Below, in pieces: positions 7,770-24,143 of a stretch of 24,143 nt of DNA (position 1 is the first letter of the stretch; each line of letters starts with the position of its first letter). A program made the translations under genes and the position numbers. The stretch covers positions 1-24,143 of the forward strand of contig JAZQUQ010000371.1 of NCBI GenBank assembly GCA_045631365.1, given 5' to 3'. The DNA is from Eubacteriales bacterium (lineage in GTDB: Bacteria > Bacillota > Clostridia > Oscillospirales > CAG-272). The notes under the pieces are model-generated. The model saw nothing but the letters and a program-made list of their open reading frames with translations. It was not told the DNA's origin and did not search any database.

Positions 7770-10700
7770 TCACCTCTGATGATAATAGGGGCGGCGCGTG
7801 TTTTTGCTTCCGCTGAGGTTGGGGGTATGGGCGGACAGCTTTCTTTGTTCCGTTTCTTCTTTGTCGCGGCGGATGATGAGGATTGCGGCAAAGACGGTGA
7901 CGACGAAGAGGATGCCTACGGTGAAATAGACTTCTAATCCTCGTTCGGGTGGGAGTTCCGCGGGGGGAGTGAACAGGGCTGCCATTGCTTCGGAGGGCAT
8001 TTCTCGGCTCCTCAGAGTGACAGACTGAATTTCAAGGACGGCGGATTCTCCCGAGTACACCATGACGCCGATATAATCCACGTTGGTTTTGCCTTCAAAG
8101 TCGGAAATGGGACATTGGACGGTATGAACTGTGCCGGGTTCCACATCGTTCAGGGGGTATTCGGCACGGATTCGTTCGTTTCCGATGACGAAGATCAAGG
8201 TGGAGGCTTCCGCTGTCTCGGCAACGGAGAAACGGAAGACCAGCTGATCGATGCCGCTGAAATCCATGGATTGGTTGAAATTTCGGAGGACGATGGCACT
8301 TGCCTTGCTGATTTCATAGTCGGAATACACCCTTGTGCGGAGGGCACGGCAGGAAATTCCTGCGGATTGGGAGAAGATTTCGCTTCGCTCCGTGCTGCAG
8401 CCGATTACGGTTCCCCCGGATACCCAGCCGTCATTGTGATACAGATTGGTGAAATCCCACACGGTGTAGCGGTAGTCGTTTTTTTCTTCCGGTTCTGCCG
8501 AGTCTGAGGTGTACTCTGCGTCGAGGGTGACGATTGTGCTGTTTTTGCCCCAGTCGCGGAGGTTTTTGAGGTTTCGGTAGAGCTGTTCCTTTCTTTCGTC
8601 TAAAATCCATCTTACGGAAAGGAAGACTGCCGTTGGATTTTGGGAAAGGACCTCTTCGCAAAGGGTATCGTATTCGGCGGTGATGCTTTCGGCGGAGGAG
8701 GCTTCGTTGGGGGTATAGAAATAGAGAATACCTTTTGCTTCACCGTTTACACCGAAGTGGGAAGAGGCATCGAAGAGACGTTTTGCGTCGGAAAGAAGGG
8801 CGTGGAAGGTCTCTTCTTCTTGCTTATCTTCGGAATAGAGGCAGTACATGACGTACCACGTGGGGCTGCCCATTCTCTTGTTGTGCCATGCCACCATTTG
8901 GTTGACGATATGATTATAGCTTCCGTTGGCGTTGTAGGGGATGATGATGCTTGTGTGGGAGGGCTCAAGGGTAGCGTTGACTGTATTGAAAGTAACGTTG
9001 ATTAAAGCGGACAGTTTCGCGGTATAGGCATAGATCGCCAAGGGGGTGTCTTCCGGGAAGGAGTCCGCGGAGTAGCTTACCGCGTTCCCCAGGATGATGC
9101 CGCTGACCGCATCCTGCATCAAGGCGCTGTCGTAGGTTAAAAAAGTGCGCAGGATTGCGGAATAGATCTCCATATCCCATGCATTGAGGGTGGAGATGTT
9201 GGTGAGAAAGTTGGTGTTTTTGTCGGTGATTCGAAGATACACGTCAAGGTTTGCGGAATGATAGAAGCCGATTTCGGTCAGAAGCTCTCCCATAAGGGCT
9301 GCATCCAGATAGACTGCGGTGCCGTCAGAGCCATAGGTTTTCACCGTGTTGGAATAAGGGAGGTGGGAGGCTTGACGGTCGGGGGGGACGGTTTGCGTTA
9401 CCAGACGGTCAAAGGGGACGTCTACGATGACGTGGGAGGCATTCGATTCGAAGGTTCCCACCACAGAGCCTCCTTCAATGCCTACGATGGAATGGCTGCT
9501 GCTTGTGGGGCTGCCGTACTCTGCACCTCTCGGCATGGAGATCAGGAGGGGGGAATGGTCTGCACCTTCTACGGTAACGCAGAACATGTGAGTTCCTGCG
9601 TATCGTGCGGTCAGCTCTGCATCCAAAATCAGCTCGAAATTCATGTACAGTTGGCTGCGGTGAAGTTCTGTTCCGTCGTAGACCGGCTGTCCGTTTTCAA
9701 TTTTTGATTCTGCTGTATAGGGGACTGCGTAGACTACAAGTTCGTCTTTTTTGTAGGTGTTGGTGATTTTTTGAGAGACACTTCCTTGAATCGTCAGGCG
9801 TCCGTTTTCGGGATTGACTGTGATTGCGGAAACATATCCGTTACCCGTTGCCTGAGGAGGGAGATCGGTTGTGAAAAGGATATCAATGGATTCGATGCAG
9901 ATTCCGTTTCCGCTGTACACGCTGTTTCGGAAGGACAGGCGGTAGGAAACCATGGCATCAGATGCTGTAAAGGGGAAGGAATACACAGCCCGTCCGTTCT
10001 GCATTGGCAGGGCACCGCATTCGGCATAGGTTATGAGATTGTTTTTTGCAGAACGGGAGCCCATGGAGAGGGTGCCTCCTTCAATATTACCCGAAAGGGT
10101 GACCAGCATGAAGGCTTGGGTTCCCTCGGCGGGAAGCTCGCTCAGGACGATATCGCCGTCCAGATCGGTTGAGTTTCCGTAAGGATGCACGGAGATGAGA
10201 CCGCCTGTTTCGGTGAGGCGTCCCCCTGTGATTTTAAAGAGAGAGGTATTGTATCGGCTGATGTAGTTCTTTTGCGTATCGTTATGGAAGAAAAGAGGGG
10301 AGATCCGGATTTTCTCGGGCACATCAACGGTATCGAATGAAAAGGTGACGGTGATGGATTCGATGGAGGATGCTTCGGTGATATCCATTCGGATTTCGTG
10401 CCATGCGTTGAGGGGAACCATTGCTTGAGTTGAGATTGTTTTGAGATTGTCGGACAGGGGGCATTCGATGGTGACACGGCAATAGCCGCTTGCGTTTTCT
10501 GCTTCGATATTCAGGGGAATGGTGAGGGTGGTATAGTTTTCTGCGTTTTCAGGTTCCGGATAGATCAGCTGCAGGGCGTTATCGGAGAAGGTGTCTCTGA
10601 AATTGAGTTGGAGGATGGTTGTGCCGTTGAGCTTTTGTCTGCTGGTACGAACGGTGCTTGACGAGACGGTCCACGAGCTCGAAAAGTTTTGATCCAGATA

Positions 10701-10862
10701 GGATTTGGATGGGTCCGGTTTTACGGTGCCGGTGGGGGCGGTGGTTTTCTTTACGTAGGAGGGAGTGTAAACCGTTTCCGCGGCCGACACGGCAAGTCCG
10801 AGAAACAAAGAAAAAACTGCAATTATAACAAGCATTTGCTTAATCCATATGGGGCGTTTCAA
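7770..10862 (-). CDS. Large secreted, C-terminally membrane-anchored protein; central region possibly DUF5722/glycoside-hydrolase-like barrel
   Basis: TTG start with GGAGG RBS, N-terminal signal peptide (...GLAVSAA), C-terminal TM segment plus a basic tail, 1030 aa. The domain call is by resemblance only. Confidence 0.75.
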   Translation of the reverse strand: MKRPIWIKQMLVIIAVFSLFLGLAVSAAETVYTPSYVKKTTAPTGTVKPDPSKSYLDQNFSSSWTVSSSTVRTSRQKLNGTTILQLNFRDTFSDNALQLIYPEPENAENYTTLTIPLNIEAENASGYCRVTIECPLSDNLKTISTQAMVPLNAWHEIRMDITEASSIESITVTFSFDTVDVPEKIRISPLFFHNDTQKNYISRYNTSLFKITGGRLTETGGLISVHPYGNSTDLDGDIVLSELPAEGTQAFMLVTLSGNIEGGTLSMGSRSAKNNLITYAECGALPMQNGRAVYSFPFTASDAMVSYRLSFRNSVYSGNGICIESIDILFTTDLPPQATGNGYVSAITVNPENGRLTIQGSVSQKITNTYKKDELVVYAVPYTAESKIENGQPVYDGTELHRSQLYMNFELILDAELTARYAGTHMFCVTVEGADHSPLLISMPRGAEYGSPTSSSHSIVGIEGGSVVGTFESNASHVIVDVPFDRLVTQTVPPDRQASHLPYSNTVKTYGSDGTAVYLDAALMGELLTEIGFYHSANLDVYLRITDKNTNFLTNISTLNAWDMEIYSAILRTFLTYDSALMQDAVSGIILGNAVSYSADSFPEDTPLAIYAYTAKLSALINVTFNTVNATLEPSHTSIIIPYNANGSYNHIVNQMVAWHNKRMGSPTWYVMYCLYSEDKQEEETFHALLSDAKRLFDASSHFGVNGEAKGILYFYTPNEASSAESITAEYDTLCEEVLSQNPTAVFLSVRWILDERKEQLYRNLKNLRDWGKNSTIVTLDAEYTSDSAEPEEKNDYRYTVWDFTNLYHNDGWVSGGTVIGCSTERSEIFSQSAGISCRALRTRVYSDYEISKASAIVLRNFNQSMDFSGIDQLVFRFSVAETAEASTLIFVIGNERIRAEYPLNDVEPGTVHTVQCPISDFEGKTNVDYIGVMVYSGESAVLEIQSVTLRSREMPSEAMAALFTPPAELPPERGLEVYFTVGILFVVTVFAAILIIRRDKEETEQRKLSAHTPNLSGSKNTRRPYYHQR

Positions 10863-13075: not shown

Positions 13076-13171
13076 GTCTTTTCGAAAATATTTTTCGTTT
13101 TTTTCGATCTTTTTTGGAAAATCGTTGGAATTCCCTTGGAAAATCGCGGGACGACAGGGGAGGGGGGCTTG

Positions 13172-13180
13172 TGATACAAT
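13172..13180 (+). promoter_or_regulatory. Extended -10 promoter candidate for the phage-like operon
   Basis: TG-A-TACAAT with no recognisable -35 element. Confidence 0.45.
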
Positions 13181-13314
13181 TTAGGCACAGGCAAGGAAAT
13201 CCGATGCCGTTCGGCGATGCGGAAACTTCATCGGGAGAGACCGAGTTTGATTGAAACTGCCGCCCATGACGGATGGCTGTGGATTTTCAATCCGCCTAAA
13301 GAAAGGAGAGAAGG

Positions 13315-13668
13315 ATTACGGAAGAGAAGAAGACGATGATTGCCCGTGAGATGATCCGTCGGCAGAACGTTGCTGAGGTTCTCCGCGAGCACGGGGTTTC
13401 CGAGGAAGAGTTTCTTCGGTGGCTGGAGGAGGGTGAGGTGGCGGAATACCTTTACCGTATGGCAAAGACCAAGGCGATGGCCAAGGTATCCGAGCTTTGG
13501 CTGAAGCTGGAGAAAATGGCTGCGGCGGGGGATTTGAAGGCCATGAAGCTGTACTATGATCTTTGCGATCGGATGCGATCGGAAGAAAAGGGCAGTGAGG
13601 TGGGTGCTGATCCCGAGATTGACAGAATCAGACAGGAGCTTTTCGGCAATGGGCAAGCAGAGCGCTGA
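13315..13668 (+). CDS. Terminase small subunit-like helix-turn-helix protein
   Basis: N-terminal HTH-like segment (VAEVLREHGVSEEEFLRWL) and a helical GDLKAMKLYYDL motif. It overlaps the TerL start. The start is ambiguous: ATT 13315 (with RBS) or ATG 13336. Confidence 0.7.
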   Translation: MTEEKKTMIAREMIRRQNVAEVLREHGVSEEEFLRWLEEGEVAEYLYRMAKTKAMAKVSELWLKLEKMAAAGDLKAMKLYYDLCDRMRSEEKGSEVGADPEIDRIRQELFGNGQAER

Positions 13669-14935
13669 GAAGTACGTATTCGGGGAAAAGCACCGTGAGT
13701 ACATGAGGCGTGCGGCTGTCTGCACGATCAACGTGGCGGAGGGTGCTGTCCGTGCGGGGAAAACCGTGGACAATGTATTCGTCTTTGCGGCGGAACTGGA
13801 ACGGTCGGCGGATCGGTTTCATCTTGCAAGCGGTTCCACTTTGGGAAATGCCAAGCTGAACATCGGGGACTGCAACGGGCTGGGGCTTGAGAACATTTTC
13901 CGAGGGCGTTCCAGATGGGGAAAGTACCGTGGGAATGAATGCATGATTGTTCAAACGGCTATGGGAGAGAAGGTCATCATTTTTGCGGGGGGGAAGAATG
14001 CGGATGCGTACAAGAGGATCCGAGGAAATTCCTATGGAATGTGGATTGCTACGGAGATTAACCTTCATGCGGATTCCTTTATTCGGGAGGCGTTCAACCG
14101 TCAGCTTGCCGCTGTACATCGGAAGGTTTTTTGGGATTTGAACCCTTCTGCTCCGAATTCTTTGATTTACCGTGAGTATATTGATCGGTATGCGGAGATG
14201 GGGGAAGAGAACTTTTTCAACTATGCCCGTTTTACCATCCGCGACAATCCTGTGATTTCTCCCGAGCGGCTTCGTGAGATTGAGGCGCAGTATGACAAGG
14301 CTTCCATTTGGTATCGGCGCGATATTTTGGGAGAGCGATGTGCTGCGGAGGGGGTGATTTATCATCTCTTTGCCAATGACCGAGCGAGGTTTACGGTGAA
14401 ATCCGTGGATGCGAATGCCATGGAATTTATCAACATCGGGGTGGACTTTGGCGGAAACCGATCGAAAACCACCTTTGTGGCTGCGGCGTTTCTTCGGGAT
14501 GGGACGATCTGCATTGTGAAGGATCATGCGGTCAGCGGAGGGAAGGGGGAGATTGATTCCCCGCGGATCAATGAAGAGCTCAGAGTGTTTATGGAAGGGT
14601 TGAGGAGGGATTTTCCCGGGGTGAGTATCCGATACGTTTTCTGTGACTCTGAGGCTCAGTATCTGATCAATGGTTTACGACGGAGTCTGCGAGGGTGCGG
14701 GACGGTGATTTCCGACTGCGCGAAGAAGAGGATCCGGGACCGTATTGCCTTTGTGAATTCCATGATGGCGGCGGGGAAGTTTATGCTTCTGGAACGGTGC
14801 AGCCTTGTGGCGGACGGTCTTGCCTGTGCGGTTTGGGATGACAGCGGAGAGGACAAGAGACTGGATGATTTTACCTCCGACATTGACATCCTGGATGCTA
14901 TGGAATATGCCATTGAACGGTATATGAAGCGGTGA
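13649..14935 (+). CDS. Terminase large subunit (PBSX-like)
   Basis: Walker A EGAVRAGKT, WDLNP coupling motif, nuclease acidic motifs IGVDFG, FCDSE and DIDILDAMEYAIE. ATG 13649 follows CAGGAG. Confidence 0.92.
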   Translation: MGKQSAEKYVFGEKHREYMRRAAVCTINVAEGAVRAGKTVDNVFVFAAELERSADRFHLASGSTLGNAKLNIGDCNGLGLENIFRGRSRWGKYRGNECMIVQTAMGEKVIIFAGGKNADAYKRIRGNSYGMWIATEINLHADSFIREAFNRQLAAVHRKVFWDLNPSAPNSLIYREYIDRYAEMGEENFFNYARFTIRDNPVISPERLREIEAQYDKASIWYRRDILGERCAAEGVIYHLFANDRARFTVKSVDANAMEFINIGVDFGGNRSKTTFVAAAFLRDGTICIVKDHAVSGGKGEIDSPRINEELRVFMEGLRRDFPGVSIRYVFCDSEAQYLINGLRRSLRGCGTVISDCAKKRIRDRIAFVNSMMAAGKFMLLERCSLVADGLACAVWDDSGEDKRLDDFTSDIDILDAMEYAIERYMKR

Positions 14936-15006
14936 TGGAAAGGAAGTTTTGCTGTTTTGCTGCCGTTTGAGTGGATGATTTTCAAAATTATTCTGTTGGA
15001 GGAAAA

Positions 15007-16398
15007 ATGAAAGAAGAAATATTAAAAATTCTCGCAGAACAGGTGGGCACTGCTGTGGGGATTGGCTGTTATGCCCGTATTGATGAGTGGCTGGCGTGGT
15101 GGAGAGGGACCTATCCTTCCTTCCATCTCTATTGGGAAAACGGGGTGGGAGGATATCCCATTCGCCGTGAGCTTTATCGCATGAACATGGCGAAGAAGAT
15201 TTGCGAGGATTGGGCGGCTATTCTGATGAACGACCGTACCTATGTGAATGTTCCTCACGAGCTTACTAAGCATTGGCTGGATACTCATCTTGGTGACGCT
15301 TTTTTTCGAGGAATGAACCGTTTGATTGAAAAGACCTTTGCTTCGGGGACGGGTGCTTGTCTGATTCGGCTCAATGGAGCGGAACTGGACGAGGATGGAA
15401 GAATTCTTCCCATAGTGGGGTTCCGAGGTGTGGGGGGACCTGAGATCTCTTTTGATTTTGTGGATGCCTCTCATATTATTCCCATTACGGTGCGAGGCGG
15501 GGAGATGATAGAAGCGGCGTTTGTTTCCGAAGTTCGCATACGTGGAGAGGCGTTGATTTATCTGGAAATTCACACGCTGGAGGAGGATGGGTACGTGATC
15601 CGTAACCGTCTTTACCGTCAGCAGGATGCCGTTCTTGAGGAAGTGCGAGGCGGTGGAGAGGCGGCGGCTGTGATCCGTACGGGATCCCGTATTCCGTTTT
15701 TCGCCATTCTGACGCCCAATCTTCTCAACCATATTGATGAGGGAAGCGGGATGGGGATTTCCGTTTTTGCGGATGCCATTGACTGTCTGAAAGGGGTGGA
15801 CTTAGCATTCAACAATTTCTGCCGCGACATTAAGCTGGGCGGAAAAAAGGTGTTTATCAATCAGTCTTTGATCTGCCGTGATGCGGATGGGAATGTATAT
15901 ACGCCCGATGACGTGGCTCAGCAGTTGTTTGTGACCGTTGGGGACACGGATATTGCGGACAATCCCATGATTACGGAGCATAATCCCGAGCTTCGCAGCA
16001 ATGAAAATGCGGATGCGGTGCAGAGTCAGCTTGATTACCTTTCCTTCCGCTGCGGGCTTGGTACACAGCATTATCAATTCCGTAATCTGAGGGGTGTGGC
16101 GAAGATGACTGCCACTCAGTATATGGGGGAAAAACAGGATCTTCGTCAGAATGCGGCGAAGCATGGGCAGAACCTTGGTTTATTCCTTCGCCGAATTGCG
16201 GAATGTGTGGTTTTCCTTGGGGAGGCGGTATATGGGCTTCCTTTGGACGGAACCGGTCTCAGTATTCGGTTTGACGACAGTTATTTCATTGACAGCGACA
16301 GCGAGCGAAGCCGTGATCTTCATGAGATGGAGCTTGGGGTGATGACGGCGGAGGAATTCCGTGAAAAATGGTACGGTACGCCTTTGGGAGGCGGTTGA
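15007..16398 (+). CDS. Phage portal protein (SPP1/A118-like)
   Basis: NMAKKICEDWA, GISVFADAIDCLKGVDLAFNNF and IRFDDSYFID..., EEFREKWYG C-terminus. It follows TerL. ATG 15007 follows GGAGG. Confidence 0.88.
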   Translation: MKEEILKILAEQVGTAVGIGCYARIDEWLAWWRGTYPSFHLYWENGVGGYPIRRELYRMNMAKKICEDWAAILMNDRTYVNVPHELTKHWLDTHLGDAFFRGMNRLIEKTFASGTGACLIRLNGAELDEDGRILPIVGFRGVGGPEISFDFVDASHIIPITVRGGEMIEAAFVSEVRIRGEALIYLEIHTLEEDGYVIRNRLYRQQDAVLEEVRGGGEAAAVIRTGSRIPFFAILTPNLLNHIDEGSGMGISVFADAIDCLKGVDLAFNNFCRDIKLGGKKVFINQSLICRDADGNVYTPDDVAQQLFVTVGDTDIADNPMITEHNPELRSNENADAVQSQLDYLSFRCGLGTQHYQFRNLRGVAKMTATQYMGEKQDLRQNAAKHGQNLGLFLRRIAECVVFLGEAVYGLPLDGTGLSIRFDDSYFIDSDSERSRDLHEMELGVMTAEEFREKWYGTPLGGG

Positions 16399-16412
16399 AA
16401 GGAGGTGACGGT

Positions 16413-16826
16413 ATGAGTGAATCCATCAAGAATTTGTTCGGAGAGGAAGCGATCAGCTATGAGGAGCTTATTCGCCGTGCGGAGGATGCCAAGGTGAAGA
16501 TCGGGGATCTTACGGAGGCGGAAGCGGCACATCGGAAGGAATTGGACGGGATTTGCATTTCCCATGCGTTGGAGCGAGGGCTTGAGAGACTTGGAGCGAA
16601 AAATGCGGACCTTGTTCGTCGTGCCATCCGACTTGAGACGGTATCTGTGGAAAACGGGAAGGTTGTGGGACTGGACGAGCAGCTTTCCGCTTTGCAGGCC
16701 AGCGACCCGTATCTGTTTCGTGAGCGAGAGACGGTTCGTACGGGGGGAGAGCATGGGCAATCCTTCCGTGACCCTGACAGCATGAGTGATGCGGATTTTT
16801 ACAAAATTCGATTTGGCTGCCGATAA
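16413..16826 (+). CDS. Capsid scaffolding protein (GP20-like)
   Basis: GAKNADLVRRAI, VVGLDEQLSALQASDPYLF and C-terminal MSDADFYK; located between portal and coat; RBS AAAGGAGGTG. Confidence 0.8.
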   Translation: MSESIKNLFGEEAISYEELIRRAEDAKVKIGDLTEAEAAHRKELDGICISHALERGLERLGAKNADLVRRAIRLETVSVENGKVVGLDEQLSALQASDPYLFRERETVRTGGEHGQSFRDPDSMSDADFYKIRFGCR

Positions 16827-16855
16827 TTGGCAGAAAAAACTACATTTTATATTAT
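16827..16855 (+). promoter_or_regulatory. Possible internal sigma-A promoter upstream of the coat gene
   Basis: TTGGCA (16827-16832), 17 bp, TATTAT (16850-16855), in an AT-rich 57 bp gap. Confidence 0.45.
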
Positions 16856-16883
16856 TATTTTCAAACAAGAAAGGATTTTTATT

Positions 16884-17981
16884 ATGGCAGAAACATTTTT
16901 TTCAGTAAAACAGATTGCAAGGGAGACTCTTCCCAGACTGATTGATAATCTTGTATTCCCTAACCTGGTGTACAAGGATCTTTCCTCTGCGTTTACCGCG
17001 AAGAGAGGGGATACGGTTGGGGTTCGCAGACCGGTGAAGCTTTGTGCGGAGGAGTTCAATGAGACCTCCGGCGTTTCTCCCGTGGGCTTCGCGGACGACA
17101 CCGTTGACGTGAAGCTTGACAAGATTGCGACCGTGGATATGGAGGTTTCCGCGGTGGAGGCAGCCTGTGATTTTGATTCTCTGACACGACTTTTCATCGA
17201 GCCTGCGGCTGCTGCTCTGGCGGAAAAGATTAACCGCGACGGTCTGGCGCTTTACAAGGACATTCCTTACGTGATGGGTACTGCGGGAACTTCTCCCGAC
17301 GGTCTGGACGATCTGGCGGGGGCAGCCTTTGCTCTGGACACCCTTCGTGTGCCTACCGATGCAAGATGCGCGGTTTGGGATCCCTATACGACCTCCAAGC
17401 TGAAGCAGATTCCTGCTGTGGTGAACGCGGAAAAGTGCGGAAGTGCCAAGGCTCTCCGTACCGGCTCCATCGGCAGAATTTTCGGTGTGGAAAACTATAT
17501 GTCTCAGGGTGTTTGTGATCATGAGACAGAGCTTTCCTCCGCTTCCTTTACGGTGAAGGCTGACGTGGCAGATTCCGATAAAGTGACCATTACTTCTGCT
17601 TCTGCAAACGGCAGTGTGCGTAAGGGGGACATCCTTACCGTGAACGGAAGCACCTATACGGTCACCGCGGATGCGGCTGTTGTGGGCAATGAGGCTGTGG
17701 TTTCCGTTTATCCCAAGATGACGGCAAACGCCAAGGATGCGGTGGTATTCACTCCTTCTCACAAGGCAAACCTGGTGTTCCATCCCAATGCCTTTGCTTT
17801 TGTGACACGTCCTCTTTCTACTCCTGCGGGTGTGGAATCCTATGTTACCACTTACAACGGCATTTCTCTCCGTGTGGTGAGAGGATACAACATGAAGTAC
17901 AAGAAGGAAGTTCTTTCTATGGATATCCTGTACGCCTTCAAGACCATTTATCCCGAACTTGCGGTTCGTTATCTGGCGTGA
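16884..17981 (+). CDS. Major capsid protein, P22 coat-like family
   Basis: IARETLPRLIDNLVF, KRGDTVGVRRP, FIEPAAAALAEKIN, a beta-rich insertion domain, NLVFHPNAFAFVTRPL and SMDILYAFK. ATG 16884 follows AGAAAGGA. Confidence 0.88.
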   Translation: MAETFFSVKQIARETLPRLIDNLVFPNLVYKDLSSAFTAKRGDTVGVRRPVKLCAEEFNETSGVSPVGFADDTVDVKLDKIATVDMEVSAVEAACDFDSLTRLFIEPAAAALAEKINRDGLALYKDIPYVMGTAGTSPDGLDDLAGAAFALDTLRVPTDARCAVWDPYTTSKLKQIPAVVNAEKCGSAKALRTGSIGRIFGVENYMSQGVCDHETELSSASFTVKADVADSDKVTITSASANGSVRKGDILTVNGSTYTVTADAAVVGNEAVVSVYPKMTANAKDAVVFTPSHKANLVFHPNAFAFVTRPLSTPAGVESYVTTYNGISLRVVRGYNMKYKKEVLSMDILYAFKTIYPELAVRYLA

Positions 17982-17982
17982 T

Positions 17983-18339
17983 ATGGATTACGGTTATTAT
18001 TTAAACAAATTCGGCGGAAAATTGATTCCCGAGGAGGATTTCTGCCGTGTGATGGAGGAGGGGAAGGGGATTCTCCTCTCCCTCCTCTTCCCTTTGAGGG
18101 AGGAGGATCTTTCCTCGGGGGACAGAGAGGTGTTCTGCCGTGCGTTATGCTATGAGGCGGAGTATCTCTTCTCGGGAAAGAACGAGGAAGGAACCGTGAA
18201 GTCGGAGAAGGCGGGGGATTATTCCGTTACTTACCGCTCTGTTTCGGACAAGAAGACGGTCAGCGTGTTTGGCAGTGAGGTTTCGCCCGCTGCTTGTCAT
18301 CTTCTCCTTGCATCGGGGTTAATGTTAAGGTGGGTGTGA
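17983..18339 (+). CDS. Head-tail connector (adaptor, gp15-like)
   Basis: YGYYLNKFGGKLIPEEDF N-terminus, ALCYEAEYL and SEKAGDYSVTY; immediately after the coat gene. Confidence 0.75.
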   Translation: MDYGYYLNKFGGKLIPEEDFCRVMEEGKGILLSLLFPLREEDLSSGDREVFCRALCYEAEYLFSGKNEEGTVKSEKAGDYSVTYRSVSDKKTVSVFGSEVSPAACHLLLASGLMLRWV

Positions 18340-18341
18340 GA

Positions 18342-18737
18342 ATGCTTTTGAAGGACAGAGCGACGGTTTTTATGCGGCAGGAGCCTGAAGCCGATCCGTA
18401 CGGGGTGGCGTTCAGACGGTTTGATCTTCGCGGTGTGATGGTTTTTGAAAAACAGGCTGTATCCTTGGATCGTGCGGTGGGGGGAGACCGCGGTGACGGG
18501 GGACGTTGCGTGGTTTATTTCTTTCCTGCCAGAAGCGAGATTGTGGGAAAGAGGCGTGGCGATCCTGCCGATGGGTTCCCTAAGGTGAGTCCCGGGGATC
18601 TTCTTGTGGTGGGGGCTTGCAGAGATCGATTTGACCCTTGTGCCGATGCGGACGGGATTTGCCGCAGGATCGTTTCGGTGGAAAAGAGGACGTGTGGTTC
18701 GGAACGGGTGCATCACATTGTGATTGAGGCAATCTGA
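18342..18737 (+). CDS. Head-closure-like neck protein
   Basis: Beta-rich 131-aa protein with PGDLLVVG and a C-terminal HHIVIEAI; it occupies the position after the adaptor. Confidence 0.6.
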   Translation: MLLKDRATVFMRQEPEADPYGVAFRRFDLRGVMVFEKQAVSLDRAVGGDRGDGGRCVVYFFPARSEIVGKRRGDPADGFPKVSPGDLLVVGACRDRFDPCADADGICRRIVSVEKRTCGSERVHHIVIEAI

Positions 18738-18750
18738 CGGAGGTGTTGAG

Positions 18751-19197
18751 TTGGAAGCTTTATGGGAGATGGTTTGCTCTTATCTGAATGGATTTGAAGG
18801 GAGGATTTGTGATGTTCTTCCTGAGGAGATTGGAAAAAATCGTCCGTGTGCGGGGATTTTCGTGCAGGCGGGGACGAAAGAGAAGGCGTATCTTGACGGA
18901 TCGGTTTGTGTACGGATTCCGTTTATGCTTTGTCTGCGGATGAACGCATATTCCGTGAGGGAGAAGTTGGACGGGGTGGGAAGTCTGATGGGGCTTTTGC
19001 GGTACGTTCGGACTGTTCCTTGCAGAGGGGAGTTTAAAGGAGGACATATTGTGGGAATTCACGGGACGGACATTCCTTATCGATCTGTGGTATTTGACGA
19101 CGGTGGAGAAGAATTCAAGATGAACTTTTCTGTAGACGTGAGGTTGGATTTGGCCGCTCCGGATTTGACGGAAATGGAGGATGTTGATGAACATTGA
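18751..19197 (+). CDS. Tail terminator / minor-capsid-like neck protein
   Basis: TTG start 5 nt after GGAGGTG; KEKAYLDGSVCVRIPFML motif; occupies the third neck position. Confidence 0.6.
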   Translation: MEALWEMVCSYLNGFEGRICDVLPEEIGKNRPCAGIFVQAGTKEKAYLDGSVCVRIPFMLCLRMNAYSVREKLDGVGSLMGLLRYVRTVPCRGEFKGGHIVGIHGTDIPYRSVVFDDGGEEFKMNFSVDVRLDLAAPDLTEMEDVDEH

Positions 19198-19969
19198 GAT
19201 TGTATCGGGGGAGAACGTTCTCACGTTTTCCCCCTCATCTCCCCTTCGTATTCTTGCGGGGGGAATGGTTGGGTTTGACGGAGGGGAGACTCATCTTTCC
19301 TTTGAGGGAAATGCGGGGGGGATGGGGGCTTCTTTGATGGGGTGTTGTTTCCCTGAGAGAGAAATGAAAATTCGGTTTGAAATTGATGCAGTATCTTCCG
19401 AGGACGAGGCGGAATGGATGCGGTGGGTTCAAAAGGCTGCTTCTCCGGGAGAGGCTTGTGTGATCCGTTCCGAGAGGTTTGGCAGGTGGTGTCAGATCGA
19501 GGCTTTTGTGACAAAGGTTTCCTTTGAGCGGGACAAGGTATTTGAACGAATGGAGGGGGAGGTTTGTTTTTCTGCTCCGATCCCCTTCTTTGAGGCTATT
19601 GATGCTGTGACGGGGATGATTTCCGTGGGAAATTTGGGTTCTGACGTGTATAACAGCGGTGATGTATCTTGCGGTGTGCGAGTGGTGATACGTGCTGTTG
19701 GGGGGACGGTGGTGGCGCCTTCCGTGAAACTGGAGGAACGTGTGATTCGGATTACGGAGAGCCTTTCTGATGGGGATGAGCTGGTGATTGATACTCGTTT
19801 TGGTCGAAAAGGAGTATGGATCAACGGAGTGGAGAGTTTCAATTTCGATGGGAAGAGCAGCTTTTTCTCCCTTACGGTGGGGGAAAACAGGGTTTCTGCG
19901 GATGCGGATGAGGGAAAGGAGTTTATGGCGGTATCCTACGAGTTGAAACCGCTGTATTTTGGAATTTGA
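19187..19969 (+). CDS. Distal tail protein (Dit, siphovirus-tail family)
   Basis: PEREMKIRFEI, FSAPIPFF, VYNSGDVSC, GDELVIDT, FFSLTVGENRV and PLYFGI. ATG 19187 follows GGAGG. Confidence 0.8.
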   Translation: MNIEIVSGENVLTFSPSSPLRILAGGMVGFDGGETHLSFEGNAGGMGASLMGCCFPEREMKIRFEIDAVSSEDEAEWMRWVQKAASPGEACVIRSERFGRWCQIEAFVTKVSFERDKVFERMEGEVCFSAPIPFFEAIDAVTGMISVGNLGSDVYNSGDVSCGVRVVIRAVGGTVVAPSVKLEERVIRITESLSDGDELVIDTRFGRKGVWINGVESFNFDGKSSFFSLTVGENRVSADADEGKEFMAVSYELKPLYFGI

Positions 19970-20949
19970 TGGAGTGTTATTTCTTAGACAAGGAGTTATG
20001 TAGGATTACGCCTCCCATTGACACGGTTGTATCGCTTCGATGGAATCTGCGTTTCTACGAATGCGGGAGATTTCGTGCGGTTTTGGCGGCGGATTCAGGG
20101 CTTGCTGCTTCGGTCAAGAAAGCGGAGTATCTTTTGTCCGTGCAGGAAGGAGGAGTTCGCTGCGGCAGGATTGATTCCGTTGAGATTGTAGGGGGAAAGA
20201 TCAAGCTTGAGGGACGGCTGCCGGAGTGTCTTCTTTCGGACCATTTGATTGAGGGAACGTTTCGGCAATCCGGACGGGTCAATGATGCCGTTGTGCGGGC
20301 GGTTTCCGAAAATTGCAGGGAGCTGCCCTTGATTGTAGGGGAAGATTCTGCAGTGATCGATGGCAGCGGTGTTTTTTCGGTTGTTTGGGAGAATTTGGGG
20401 GCTTGGGTTTATCGTGTGCTCAAACCTTACGGCGCTTCTTGCAGAGTGGATTTTGATTCGGAACGAAGTACTTTTGTATTTCGTGTGGTGAATCCCGAAA
20501 GAGAAAGCAGAACGGTGTTTTCCGCTTCATTCGGAAATATTTGGGATGCGGAATATTGTAGGGATTCATCCTCATTAAAAAACAAGGTGTCCATCGAGGG
20601 AAAAGACGGGAAGATGGTTTGTATAGACATATCAAACGGGGCGGCAAAGAAAGAGGTGTATCGAAAGGCGGAGGATCTCAGTTTGGATTTGTTTGAGACA
20701 GTGTCGGAATATGCTGAGGCGTTGGTGATTCGTGCCAAAGAGGTTCTTTCCGGCTATGAATCGGGGACGGTTTTGCGTTTCAAGCTTTCCGGGAAAGAAG
20801 AGCTTCGTTTTGAACGGGATTACCAGATGGGGGATTTTTGCTATGCTGCGGATGAGGAGACGGGAAGGTATGCAAAAGCGAGGATTGTCGGTGCGGATGA
20901 GGTATGGGAAAACGGGGGACGGACGATAAGACTTTCTCTGATGCTTTGA
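19969..20949 (+). CDS. Baseplate hub / Tal-like protein (ReqiPepy6 Gp37-like)
   Basis: SLRWNLRFYECGRF, VFSASFGNI, KEVYRKAED and FERDYQMGDF motifs. TGATG coupling to Dit. No enzymatic C-terminal extension. Confidence 0.75.
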   Translation: MECYFLDKELCRITPPIDTVVSLRWNLRFYECGRFRAVLAADSGLAASVKKAEYLLSVQEGGVRCGRIDSVEIVGGKIKLEGRLPECLLSDHLIEGTFRQSGRVNDAVVRAVSENCRELPLIVGEDSAVIDGSGVFSVVWENLGAWVYRVLKPYGASCRVDFDSERSTFVFRVVNPERESRTVFSASFGNIWDAEYCRDSSSLKNKVSIEGKDGKMVCIDISNGAAKKEVYRKAEDLSLDLFETVSEYAEALVIRAKEVLSGYESGTVLRFKLSGKEELRFERDYQMGDFCYAADEETGRYAKARIVGADEVWENGGRTIRLSLML

Positions 20950-20990: not shown

Positions 20991-21026
20991 AAATAAAAAC
21001 CCCCTCCTGCATGAGCAGAAGGGGGT
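20991..21026 (-). terminator. Intrinsic terminator of the discoidin-protein gene
   Basis: ACCCCCTCCTGC-ATGA-GCAGAAGGGGGT stem. Its single C/A mismatch is a G-U pair on the minus strand, and the A-tract at 20991-20999 gives a minus-strand U-tail. Confidence 0.8.
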
Positions 21027-21083: not shown

Positions 21084-22895
21084 TTACTTTCTCTTCTTTG
21101 TGATTGCGTAGCCTGCTGCGGAAACGATAGCAGCAACAGCGGCGATTACGCCCATATCGAAGGTCTGGGGAGCAACGGGTGTGTCTGTGCCTTCGGTGGG
21201 AGCAGTTGTTTCTGCGGGGATTTCAACTGTTTCTGCAGCGTAGATCTTCATTTCATAAATGCCGAGTTCTGCACAAGGATGATCAAGGGTGGTGTTGATA
21301 ATACGGAAGTATTCGTAAGCGTTTGTGTCGGAGATTGTCTTTGTGAACCAACCTTCCGCATCCTTTGTTTCTGCATTGCCTGCGAATACTGCAAGGTCAA
21401 CCCAGTTGATACCGTCAACGGAGCCCTGGAAGTAGAGATCTTCGGTGATATCATCGGTACCGCGGTTGATCTTTACAGAAGAAACTGCGGTAGCAGCATC
21501 AGCCTTGAGACCAACCCAGAACTGGATACCGTTGTATCTCGGAATTGTGCCGTAGTGTGTGTCGAGATTGCCGTCGAATGCAGATTCTACACCTGCATCT
21601 CTGCCTGTCCAACCGTCGAAGGTTTCACCGCAAACGGGAGTACCGGAGATTTCGGTATCAACAACAGTATTCTTCGCTGCTGCGTAGTAGAGGGGACCCT
21701 CGTACTTGTTGTGTGTAGCGATAACGGGATCAACAGTGAAGGGTTCAGCAGCTGCTGCGGGAGCACCGTAAAGTGCAAGGTCTGCGCAGGAGCTCTGGAG
21801 AGGACCGCTGGATACGTAACGGAAGTAAGTGTAGCCGTTTGTATCGGTAACGGGCTTGCTCACCCAGTCCTGCTTGGAGGGAACGTCGTCGATGGAGTAT
21901 TCAACCAGAGTTCTCCAGTTTACACCGTCGAGAGAACCCTGAACCAGACCGTACTGAATGTCGGTATAGCAGCCTCTCTTGGGGAGGATTCTTACCTCGG
22001 TGAGAGCATGGGGCTCGTCGAACATCATACCAACCCAGCATTCGGGACCTTCCAGAGAGGGGTCGAAGTGAGTTCTGCCGTTGTTGTCGAATGCCTTTTC
22101 GTAAGCAGCCTTGTTCCAGATACCGCCGCCGCCGATGATGGTGCCGGTGAGGGATCCGTCAACAGACGTTGCAGTAGCGTTGCTTCTTACGAGAATGTTG
22201 CGCCCATAGTAGTAAGGAGTTGCAATGTTCTTTGTAGCTGCAATTTCAGCGGTCAGCTCGGTAGCGGGAGCGGGATTACCGTACAGTTCAAGTTCGCCAA
22301 CGCGGTTGTCAACAACACGGTACATGCTGTAGGAACCGCCTGCGCTTACCCAATGGATACTTTCGTCCATTCTTGCACTGTAGCCTGCATCGATGTAACG
22401 CTGATCGGTTACAGTCTGAGGAGTGAAGATGTGGTAGTCGTTGCCGTGAGCGTCCTGGCGCATGATGATAATATCAGCCCAGTTCACGCCGTCGTTGGAG
22501 CCCTGAAGCCAGAAATTGAAGAAATCGCCTGCTTCCAGATTGGGGTTGGGTGCCGCACGGACTTCGGTGAGCTCGTAAGCCTGATCGAGAATCAGACCTG
22601 CCCAACCGAGGTCGAGACCCATGTAATGGGTGTCCTGCTTGCCGTCAAACATGAGGTCTGCGCTGTTTGCACCGTCGCACTGAATGCCCTGTGCGTTCTG
22701 GCTTGTGAAAATGGTACCCTTCAGAAGCTGACCTGTGGTCACTTCGGGCAGCCCTGTGGATGTGGATGCGGGGTATGCGGCTGCGGTGATTTCACCCAGC
22801 TTTACATAGTCGCTGTTTTCTTCCCACGCGGATGCTGTGAGGGATGTGCCTGCAAGCATCAGTCCTGCGAGAAGAAGGGAAAAGAGTTTCTTCAT
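21084..22895 (-). CDS. Secreted surface protein with three discoidin/F5-8 type C (CBM32-like) domains and a PQTFD sorting-like tail
   Basis: Signal peptide MKKLFSLLLAGLMLAGTSLTASA. Three repeats of (A/M)FD(G/N)...TH...W.G...QGS.DG.NW. C-terminus APQTFD, hydrophobic stretch, KKRK. Confidence 0.85.
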   Translation of the reverse strand: MKKLFSLLLAGLMLAGTSLTASAWEENSDYVKLGEITAAAYPASTSTGLPEVTTGQLLKGTIFTSQNAQGIQCDGANSADLMFDGKQDTHYMGLDLGWAGLILDQAYELTEVRAAPNPNLEAGDFFNFWLQGSNDGVNWADIIIMRQDAHGNDYHIFTPQTVTDQRYIDAGYSARMDESIHWVSAGGSYSMYRVVDNRVGELELYGNPAPATELTAEIAATKNIATPYYYGRNILVRSNATATSVDGSLTGTIIGGGGIWNKAAYEKAFDNNGRTHFDPSLEGPECWVGMMFDEPHALTEVRILPKRGCYTDIQYGLVQGSLDGVNWRTLVEYSIDDVPSKQDWVSKPVTDTNGYTYFRYVSSGPLQSSCADLALYGAPAAAAEPFTVDPVIATHNKYEGPLYYAAAKNTVVDTEISGTPVCGETFDGWTGRDAGVESAFDGNLDTHYGTIPRYNGIQFWVGLKADAATAVSSVKINRGTDDITEDLYFQGSVDGINWVDLAVFAGNAETKDAEGWFTKTISDTNAYEYFRIINTTLDHPCAELGIYEMKIYAAETVEIPAETTAPTEGTDTPVAPQTFDMGVIAAVAAIVSAAGYAITKKRK

Positions 22896-22953
22896 AGAAT
22901 GTTTCCTCCGTTTTTTTGCCGATTCGATCGACAGTATATTTTTATACGGATAT

Positions 22954-22982
22954 ATTCTATCACAAATCAGCTATTTTTTCAA
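22954..22982 (-). promoter_or_regulatory. Sigma-A promoter of the 603-aa gene
   Basis: Minus strand TTGAAA, 17 bp, TAGAAT, with an extended -10 TG. Confidence 0.75.
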
Positions 22983-23089
22983 TATGTTTTCCAATTATTT
23001 TTTGCTTCAATATGTACAAAATATTTCAGTATTCTTAGTGAAAATGCTCATAGACTGCCGTTGGAGCATCAGACATGGGGTCCGATACG

Positions 23090-23136
23090 AAAAACTCCCC
23101 TTTCCGCGACGAGAATCCGTGACGAAAAAGGGAGTT
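23090..23136 (-). terminator. Intrinsic terminator of the upstream paralog
   Basis: Long stem 23093-23136 whose three C/A mismatches are G-U pairs on the minus strand; A5 at 23090-23094 gives the U-tail. Confidence 0.7.
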
Positions 23137-23166
23137 CTGTTATATCAATGGGTCAAATCAGAGGAA

Positions 23167-24143
23167 TTACTTTCTCTTCTTTGCAACTGCATAACCTGCA
23201 GCGGAAACTACAGCAGCAACAGCAGCGATCACGCCTGCGTCGAAGGTCTGAGGAGCTTCAACGGGTGTATCAGAACCTGCAGCGGGTGTATCTGCAGCGG
23301 GAGCCTCAGTTTCTGCGGGAACGTCAACGATTTCAGCCGCGTAGATCTTGATTTCGTCTGCGCTGAGAGAACAGTTGGGGTGATCGGTGGAGGGGTTCAT
23401 CAGACGGAAGTAGGTGTAAACGCCGGTGTCGGTGATTTCTCTTGTGTTCCAGCCGTCGGCATCCATTGCGGTAACATTGTTGTTGATTACGGCAAGGTCA
23501 ACCCAGTCGATGCCGTCAACAGAGCCCTGGAAGAAGATGTCTTCTTCATAGCCGCTCTTATTCAGAATCTTGACGGTGGAAATCGAAGTAGCAGTATCAG
23601 CCTTCAGACCAACCCAGAACTGGTCACCTTCGAATCTCGGAATGGTGCCGTAGTATGTATCGGCATTTCCGTCAAATGCCATTTCAATGGAGCGTCCGTA
23701 GCCAACCCAGCCGTTGTAGCCGAGACCGCAGATGGGATTACCGGAGATTTCATTGTCGACGATGGTGTTCTTGGTTTCGGAAATGTAAAGTTCACCGGTG
23801 TACTTGTACTGGGTAGCGATGATGGGATCTACGGTGAAGGGTTCAGCAGCTTCTGCGGGAGCACCGTAGAAGAGGAGATCCGCAACGGAACTCATTGTAT
23901 CGGTTACGCATACATAACGGAAGTAGTAGTAGCCTTCTGTTATGGGGAATGTCTTGATGACCCAATCCTGCTTTGTGGTGCAGTCTTCGACGGAATATTT
24001 AACCAGCGTCTTCCAGTTTACACCGTCAAGAGAACCCTGAATTTCACAGTGCTGAATGTCGGTGTAGCAGCCTCTCTTGGGGAGAACTCTTACTTCGGTT
24101 AGACCGATGGGTTCATCAAACTTCACGCCCACCCATGTTTCGG
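23167..24143 (-). CDS. Paralogous discoidin-domain surface protein (5' end outside the window)
   Basis: The frame is open to the window edge (...ETWVGVKFDEP). It is co-linear with domains 2-3 of 21084-22895 and has the same APQTFD-TM-KKRK tail. Confidence 0.85.
   Translation of the reverse strand, partial: ETWVGVKFDEPIGLTEVRVLPKRGCYTDIQHCEIQGSLDGVNWKTLVKYSVEDCTTKQDWVIKTFPITEGYYYFRYVCVTDTMSSVADLLFYGAPAEAAEPFTVDPIIATQYKYTGELYISETKNTIVDNEISGNPICGLGYNGWVGYGRSIEMAFDGNADTYYGTIPRFEGDQFWVGLKADTATSISTVKILNKSGYEEDIFFQGSVDGIDWVDLAVINNNVTAMDADGWNTREITDTGVYTYFRLMNPSTDHPNCSLSADEIKIYAAEIVDVPAETEAPAADTPAAGSDTPVEAPQTFDAGVIAAVAAVVSAAGYAVAKKRK

Follow-up and report, generated by a model that had tools for sequence, protein, structure and literature searches.

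A tail-reduced phage-particle operon in a Clostridia lineage as a candidate gene transfer agent

Contig JAZQUQ010000371.1 of an Eubacteriales bacterium (Oscillospirales, CAG-272; GenBank assembly GCA_045631365.1) carries a compact run of phage head, neck and tail-tip genes set directly among host genes, raising the question of whether these genes are the residue of a prophage or a particle-forming system maintained by the host. The window analyzed here is this complete contig (24,143 nt, 24.1 kb), part of a 2.2-Mb metagenome-assembled genome (MAG) with 409 contigs and 91 % completeness, and the element in question is a ten-gene operon on its + strand (13336-20949). With moderate confidence, we interpret this element as a domesticated, chromosomally inherited phage-particle operon of an uncultured Oscillospiraceae genus from gut and rumen, a 'viriform' candidate resembling gene transfer agents (GTAs) and present here in a tail-reduced form. 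That it constitutes a selected, vertically inherited element is very probable; that it behaves as a DNA-transferring GTA is a plausible proposition that falls slightly short of an even call.

A structural cluster inherited with the host

A survey of 53 species genomes of the genus, 14 of them of high quality, revealed exactly one homologue of the element's coat protein, free of internal stops, in 41 genomes (10 of the 14 high-quality ones). Among genomes outside the genus, 25 from the rest of its family yielded no homologue, and 15 of 26 from one other family of the order contained one. The hosts of the relatives are MAGs designated as uncultured Oscillospiraceae or 'Ruminococcus sp.', recovered from rumen, caecum and faeces. 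Gene maps were drawn for about 80 loci (L numbers), with relatives' genes called by codon usage and absences cross-checked by gap sizes; two genes of L033 were missed by the calls. These maps outline a canonical cluster of about 12.2 kb and 16-17 genes, structural only, with host genes (such as DUF1934, MatE and PHP) directly at its edges. Its order runs from the small and large terminase subunits (TerS, TerL) through portal, scaffold, coat, adaptor, X10, X14 (Minor_capsid_2) and terminator to tube, DUF6673, Phage_Gp15, a tape measure of about 262 aa, the distal tail protein Dit, the tail hub Tal, X11 and X12. The window's genes are orthologous to this cluster from TerS to Tal, in single copy, in the same order and with 41-95 % protein identity. 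The two share the promoter block, and the window copy differs in lying at rplS, in lacking the tail-tube and distal genes, and in having no LexA box in its promoter spacer. An earlier note on this DNA, made from the sequence alone, had proposed looking for the gene set in related genomes, and it is indeed present once per genome across the genus.

One subgroup of the element family ends in Phage_holin_4_1 and Amidase_3-SLH genes (L045, 10978-12274, and seven further loci), indicating that lysis genes can belong to the cluster. More distant clusters of 8.5-10 kb were also seen in the other family of the order (L076-L085), where they encode TerL, portal, coat, adaptor, a 350-aa protein and a holin or NlpC/P60-like gene, have no Dit or Tal, and are single-copy in 15 of the 26 genomes.

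The mode of inheritance was analyzed in 16 genomes by comparing TerL, portal and coat with ClpX, taken as a single host marker, through Mantel tests and maximum-likelihood trees. Element distances follow ClpX distances (Mantel r 0.84, p 1e-4), and the ClpX and element trees share every supported clade, with the window's genome on the same deep branch in both. The congruence between element and species trees that had been put forward as a check is therefore observed, with ClpX as the one host marker.

The ancestry of the module is outlined by three IMG/VR contigs of 32-38 kb, phage relatives with coat identities of 56-62 % that carry TerL, portal, scaffold, coat, adaptor, Minor_capsid_2, tube, Gp15, tape measure, Dit and Tal in the same order. 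This order is common to the element and to A118/SPP1-like temperate siphophages. A 32-38 kb genome, a long tape measure (967-1267 aa in the phage relatives versus 113-290 aa or none in the element), a 544-aa minor head protein and a longer scaffold (209-248 aa) are found in the phages alone, and the shortened scaffold and lost minor head protein of the element hint at a smaller head. Taken together, these comparisons point to a siphophage module that was reduced and has diverged in step with its hosts. The best coat match in INPHARED reaches 39.5 %, and with 41 of 53 genus genomes positive, the counter-case raised in the earlier note, a strain-specific module close to a complete active phage, finds no support. 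An intact or recently decayed prophage was also considered and rejected, since the element is not strain-specific, has no close complete phage and contains no pseudogenes.

The ten-gene operon and its derivation

Proteins were named with Pfam and PHROGs, gene starts were refined against relatives, and the two genes left unnamed (g07 and g08) were modelled from family alignments and then compared with solved structures. The ten co-oriented, uninterrupted open reading frames (ORFs) described in the earlier note are found where it placed them, with no internal stop, no gap above 60 nt and several overlaps of 1-11 nt, and its ten gene labels proved right, eight through Pfam or PHROGs and two through structure (g07 weakly, and g08). 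The operon opens with TerS (13336-13668; PF13022, 3.4e-08; phrog_24579), which has an N-terminal helix-turn-helix (HTH) domain, and TerL of the PBSX/Terminase_3 type (13649-14935; phrog_2, 6e-26; TIGR01547, 89 bits, below cut-off). These are followed by an A118-type portal (15007-16398; phrog_533, 4e-75; TIGR01542, 104 bits, below the 277.2 cut-off), a short scaffolding protein of 137 aa (16413-16826; PF06810, 1.5e-18), a P22-type major coat protein (16884-17981; PF11651, 1.7e-37; phrog_283, 1e-75) and a head-tail adaptor (17983-18339; phrog_541, 1e-11). The product of g07 (18330-18737; model pLDDT 85) is a putative stopper or head-closure-like neck protein, its top PDB matches being neck and stopper chains at a weak E of 4e-3 and TM of 0.3-0.5.

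The g08 model (18751-19197; pLDDT 92) identifies a tail terminator, matching lambda gpU, T5 p142, Listeria antigen B and chain 6tba_4A of the Rhodobacter capsulatus GTA (RcGTA), and this gene is retained despite the lack of a tube gene downstream. Its acidic C-terminal extension of 12-17 aa is common to the window and L096; a fused tape-measure remnant was considered as its origin and rejected, as no similarity was found. Dit (19187-19969; PF22768, SPP1_Dit, 2e-09; phrog_33) starts with an 11-nt overlap of g08, and Tal, of the Sipho_Gp37 type (19969-20949; PF14594, 3.9e-24), is the final gene. The operon contains no integrase, replication, lysis, tube or tape-measure gene, no flanking att-like direct repeat rises above chance, and no tRNA lies in the window, so that the absence of integrase, replication and lysis genes and of att-like repeats noted on first reading is borne out by the searches.

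The description of this operon as minimal holds for its ten-gene set, which turns out to be a derived deletion state with fuller relatives at the same rplS locus. Five relatives with 80-84 % coat identity (L030, L098, L210, L211 and L213) lie in the same rplS/rimM/serpin neighbourhood with 16 genes, keeping the tube, two chaperones, a tape measure of 113-120 aa, X11 and X12. The window copy is without X14, the tube, the two chaperones (DUF6673, Phage_Gp15), the mini tape measure and X11/X12. The same ten genes and junctions are found in L096, from another assembly and with 95 % coat identity, and L097 (90 %) has nine, being also without the terminator. As the window and L096 have in common the terminator extension, the terminator-Dit overlap and an alignable Tal-flank junction, the deletions must predate their split. 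The rplS-TerS, terminator-Dit and Tal-flank junctions recur in two independent assemblies, on which ground an assembly chimera was rejected. Other subclades, at seven of the mapped loci, have independently compact forms that contain no tape measure.

Selection on the retained genes was assessed through the ratio of nonsynonymous to synonymous substitution (dN/dS) in three pairwise comparisons among the reduced forms (window, L096 and L097) and in the full-length pair L098-L210. Between the window and L096, all ten genes yield values of 0.05-0.27 at dS of 0.65-1.7, with coat at 0.05, Tal at 0.13, Dit at 0.21, and terminator and g07 at 0.27. The ratio rises to 0.36 for Dit in pairs with L097, so that the three reduced-form comparisons (0.05-0.36) stay below 1, the threshold that the earlier note had proposed. 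The full-length pair equals the window-L096 pair, indicating that the neck and tail-tip genes that remain have stayed under undiminished selection since tube and tape measure were lost. Judged by these substitution ratios, the genes are under purifying selection after the deletions.

These estimates also address the possibility that the operon is an inert prophage remnant heading to decay, its intactness due to time or to selection on one or two genes. Such a remnant would fit the loss of seven genes relative to close relatives, the absence of the element from 12 of the 53 genus genomes (four of them 92-94 % complete) and the faster evolution of neck and tail-tip genes relative to head genes. 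Yet ten genes remain open in the window and L096, and nine in L097, across dS of about 0.65-1.7; their dN/dS is not above that of full-length copies; junctions are tightly coupled, without debris; and the promoter is conserved. We consider an inert remnant quite improbable. The domesticated DNA-packaging machine proposed in the earlier note is, by comparison, supported by recurrence, tree congruence, low dN/dS and the lack of a close phage.

A candidate transfer particle and its alternatives

Viewed through the GTA (viriform) criteria reportedly laid out by Lang et al. 2012 and Kogay et al. 2022, the element comprises structural and packaging genes of phage origin, has no module for integration, excision or replication, shows vertical inheritance with the host lineage as traced by one host marker, and has genes evolving under purifying selection. 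We propose that an A118/SPP1-like siphophage head-neck-tail module may have lost everything else, its tape measure shrinking from about 1000 aa to 113-290 aa, and would then have been inherited with the chromosome. In the window's subclade, one deletion would have removed the tube, the two chaperones and the mini tape measure, and another the two distal genes. In the resulting particle, TerS and TerL would fill P22-type capsids through the portal by headful packaging, and the adaptor and stopper would close the head. The hexameric ring of the terminator would sit directly on the tube-like N-domain of Dit, and Tal would close the channel, yielding a stub-tailed, podovirus-like particle. Such particles would carry host DNA, with release and regulation presumably supplied from elsewhere in the genome.

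The contact between terminator and Dit was modelled as a 2+2 complex, which scored 0.53 against 0.00 for the best control and joins the N-domain of Dit to an invariant YxDG loop in the terminator. In calibration, 58 of 80 solved complexes and 2 of 110 mismatched pairs scored at least 0.53; seven of these solved complexes and both mismatches lay at 0.60 or under. The complex model thus lends weak support to a Dit-terminator contact. Extending the proposal further, the window's subclade may record a siphophage-to-podophage transition in a domesticated element, in which, once tube, chaperones and tape measure were deleted, the terminator ring (itself dispensable in L097) came to dock directly on Dit, a working 'zero-length tail' particle still packages and delivers host DNA, and SOS control has been replaced by a regulator at the TTGGAAAA repeats; we put this forward as a possible, rather doubtful scenario.

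Several observations weigh against a domesticated, GTA-like particle. The score of the complex lies in the weak band and may merely echo the likeness between terminator and tube. A tape measure is normally required to start siphophage tail assembly. TerS keeps its HTH domain, and packaging could be site-specific. The orphan tube, tape-measure and lysis genes that the earlier note had suggested seeking elsewhere in the genome did not turn up: in this fragmented, 91 %-complete MAG, tblastn with all family members and Pfam searches returned no tube, chaperone, tape measure or X11/X12, no match to holin_4_1, HK97 capsid or PhageMin_Tail, and no endolysin partner or receptor-binding gene, which leaves release and adsorption unexplained. 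The sequencing runs listed for the window comprise three DNA runs with 5-7 % of sampled words and zero RNA runs.

Chromosomal position is a further point on this side, as it varies across the genus over at least four contexts, and the window's own genome keeps an 'empty' older site on contig C409 (5871-8051). A homologue of f17, a small HTH gene that adjoins TerS in many relatives, lies there beside PHP and DUF1934 with no cluster following. In at least eight relatives TerS follows the f17-PHP-DUF1934 arrangement, and the occurrence of this flank without a cluster indicates that the element changed position within the genus. The survey of genomic position proposed in the earlier note hence yields a divided answer, with the rplS locus common to close relatives and the position not fixed across the genus.

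The losses at the tail would also suit a selected particle with a benefit other than gene transfer, be it PBSX-like killing or lysis, community DNA release or another use of the capsid, for which DNA delivery is not needed. Purifying selection shows that there is a function, not which one; the element no longer has tube, tape measure or the two distal genes, which probably serve receptor binding; and PBSX packages DNA yet acts as a bacteriocin, as is well established (discussed in PMC12946183). This alternative is nonetheless unlikely. Constraint on Dit, Tal and the terminator (dN/dS 0.13-0.27) is as strong as on the head genes, which is difficult to reconcile with a particle that uses no tail tip, and no lysis or toxin gene lies beside the operon.

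Yet another conceivable role is that of a helper-dependent capsid supplier akin to capsid-forming phage-inducible chromosomal islands (cf-PICIs). Such a supplier would make and fill heads by itself, with a resident or infecting phage providing tails, lysis and induction. According to Alqurainy et al. 2023, cf-PICIs reportedly carry TerS, TerL, portal, scaffold, coat and connectors without a tail, a gene set close to the one described here. The element, however, has no integrase, excisionase, replication genes or att repeats, is inherited vertically rather than being mobile, and retains a Dit and a Tal. Searches of the MAG for another phage capsid, a tape measure or a holin were negative, though prophages are often missing from such bins, and the only recombinases in it are two Xer-like ones on other contigs. 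Classification as a cf-PICI or phage satellite was rejected for want of integrase, att sites, replication genes and mobility, and a helper-dependent role is very improbable.

A domesticated GTA-like particle, the interpretation we favour, can be placed against known systems. GTA-like packaging of host DNA is prevalent in gut Ruminococcaceae and Oscillospiraceae, as revealed by sequencing of virus-like particles, with most gene clusters unidentified and the responsible genes known only for Faecalibacterium (PMC12946183). The FpGTA of Faecalibacterium prausnitzii is a ten-ORF operon producing podovirus-like particles with no visible tail (PMC12946183, Nat Commun 2026), and it is near-ubiquitous in its genus, which is placed in Ruminococcaceae. 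FpGTA I spans 10.5 kb, a second operon supplies baseplate, fibre, holin and endolysin, and the capsid is named as an N4-gp56 family protein (PMC12946183, Supplementary Data 2). The earlier note knew of no characterised system with this gene set; FpGTA now provides an analogue, though of a different capsid family. Both occur in related gut Clostridia as ten-ORF, head-plus-short-tail operons without integrase or replication genes. They differ in the capsid, N4-gp56 versus P22_CoatProtein (for FpGTA, a comparison by named capsid family), and in that FpGTA is documented through particle, proteome and DNA-size evidence; the window's element is a candidate predicted from its genes. Membership in the FpGTA family was rejected, as the coat of the window reaches 19.8 of the 60 bits required by TIGR04387 and is instead a clear member of PF11651. 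A second operon of the FpGTA kind was sought and not found: the 91 %-complete MAG gave no match to holin_4_1 and contained nothing homologous to the distal or lysis genes of the element family.

A further analogue, similar in organization and in how it has evolved, is RcGTA, a siphophage-derived head-to-tail-tip cluster of about 15 kb and 17 genes with a shortened tail, vertical inheritance, purifying selection and further genes located elsewhere. The terminator and stopper folds of the RcGTA 6tba chains are those matched by the g08 and g07 models. RcGTA differs in belonging to another phylum, in its HK97-type capsid and protease, as opposed to the P22-type coat and scaffold of the window, and in keeping tube and tape measure. 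PBSX of Bacillus subtilis is similarly a defective phage-like element of Firmicutes; the window's TerL is nearest to the PBSX family model, and PBSX is SOS-induced, as many relatives of the window locus would be. PBSX differs from the window's operon in its length of 28 kb, its myovirus-like build with a contractile tail, and its repressor and lysis genes.

A literature search found no paper describing the Oscillospiraceae structural cluster family, which would represent a concrete, independent GTA candidate, derived from a different phage lineage and found in dozens of uncultured species of gut and rumen. The new features put forward here are the tail-less ten- and nine-gene forms, which selection maintains, the disappearance of the SOS box from the window's subclade, and a graded series of tail reduction, leading from siphophages with a tape measure of about 1000 aa through forms with 262 and 115 aa to forms without tape measure and, finally, without tube. 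The element forms are all compact, uninterrupted operons, with selection confirmed for the 16-gene and ten-gene forms. The series makes it possible to test how much tail a transfer particle needs and in what way tail morphology can change by deletion.

Promoter, regulation and flanking genes

The operon promoter (13139-13180, +) comprises the block GGAAAA-N3-CGGGACGACA, a -35 element ACGACA (13151-13156), an 18-nt G-rich spacer and a TG-extended -10 element TACAAT (13175-13180). Its family counterpart, GGAAAAA-N2-3-CGGGA(C/T)GACA with an 18-nt spacer and a TG-extended -10 element, lies upstream of TerS in 28 loci. The block is present also where the upstream host genes differ, which identifies it as the element's own promoter, and on the basis of these motifs it is a conserved, predicted sigma-A-type promoter. 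In ten relatives the spacer reads GAAC-N4-GTTC with 0-1 mismatch, and exact LexA boxes at relatives' promoters are far commoner than chance. The spacer of the window's subclade is G-rich and has no LexA box. No such box occurs near the window's operon, box-like sites in the window are fewer than in shuffles, and the MAG yields only a sub-threshold match to the LexA protein. SOS control of the window copy was thus looked for and not found, and the SOS box is, as far as these motifs indicate, lost in the window's subclade.

A candidate regulator site (13114-13151, +) lies immediately before the operon promoter; it is formed by a pair of direct repeats, TTGGAAAATCG, spaced 22 nt apart, and the repeat region is conserved in the alignment of the rplS subclade. 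Downstream of the promoter, a leader of about 155 nt (13181-13335, +) is conserved with L096 and L097 and matches no RNA family or riboswitch known to Rfam. A promoter-like sequence, TTGGCA-17-TATTAT, was also seen in the gap between scaffold and coat (16827-16855, +), and the coat has the lowest dN/dS of the operon (0.05).

On the left, the operon is flanked on the - strand by rplS, encoding ribosomal protein L19 (12606-12953; PF01245, 6.9e-48), a GNAT acetyltransferase gene and MscS. A strong promoter-like site for rplS lies at 13075-13047 (-), reading TTGCCA-17-TATAAT with TG, and the rplS flank is also found at L096, L097, L030 and L211. On the right, two convergent F5/8-type-C genes occupy the - strand. 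A 12-bp G+C-rich hairpin between Tal and these genes (20999-21026) has its T-run on the - strand and its A-run on the + strand, an orientation that makes it primarily the terminator of the convergent host gene. Both sites described in the earlier note as bounding the operon, the rplS promoter and a host-type terminator, are hence present, with the hairpin serving the host gene first.

The two F5/8-type-C (discoidin) proteins encoded at 21084-24132 (-) are paralogous, and L096 and L097 have homologues at the corresponding position. Relatives with 80-84 % coat identity carry serpin genes next to the cluster in the rplS/rimM neighbourhood, as a tandem pair in L098 (796-3366) and L213 (12622-15300) and as a single gene at the locus edge in L210 (11489-12329). 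Further from the operon, a 1021-aa ORF between metF and mscS (7770-10835, -) has no Pfam match and was not seen in the fetched flanks of relatives. Between clpX and dnaX, the window encodes a bacterial large signal recognition particle RNA (1709-1975, +; RF01854, 179.8 bits), and the ORFs called there are spurious.

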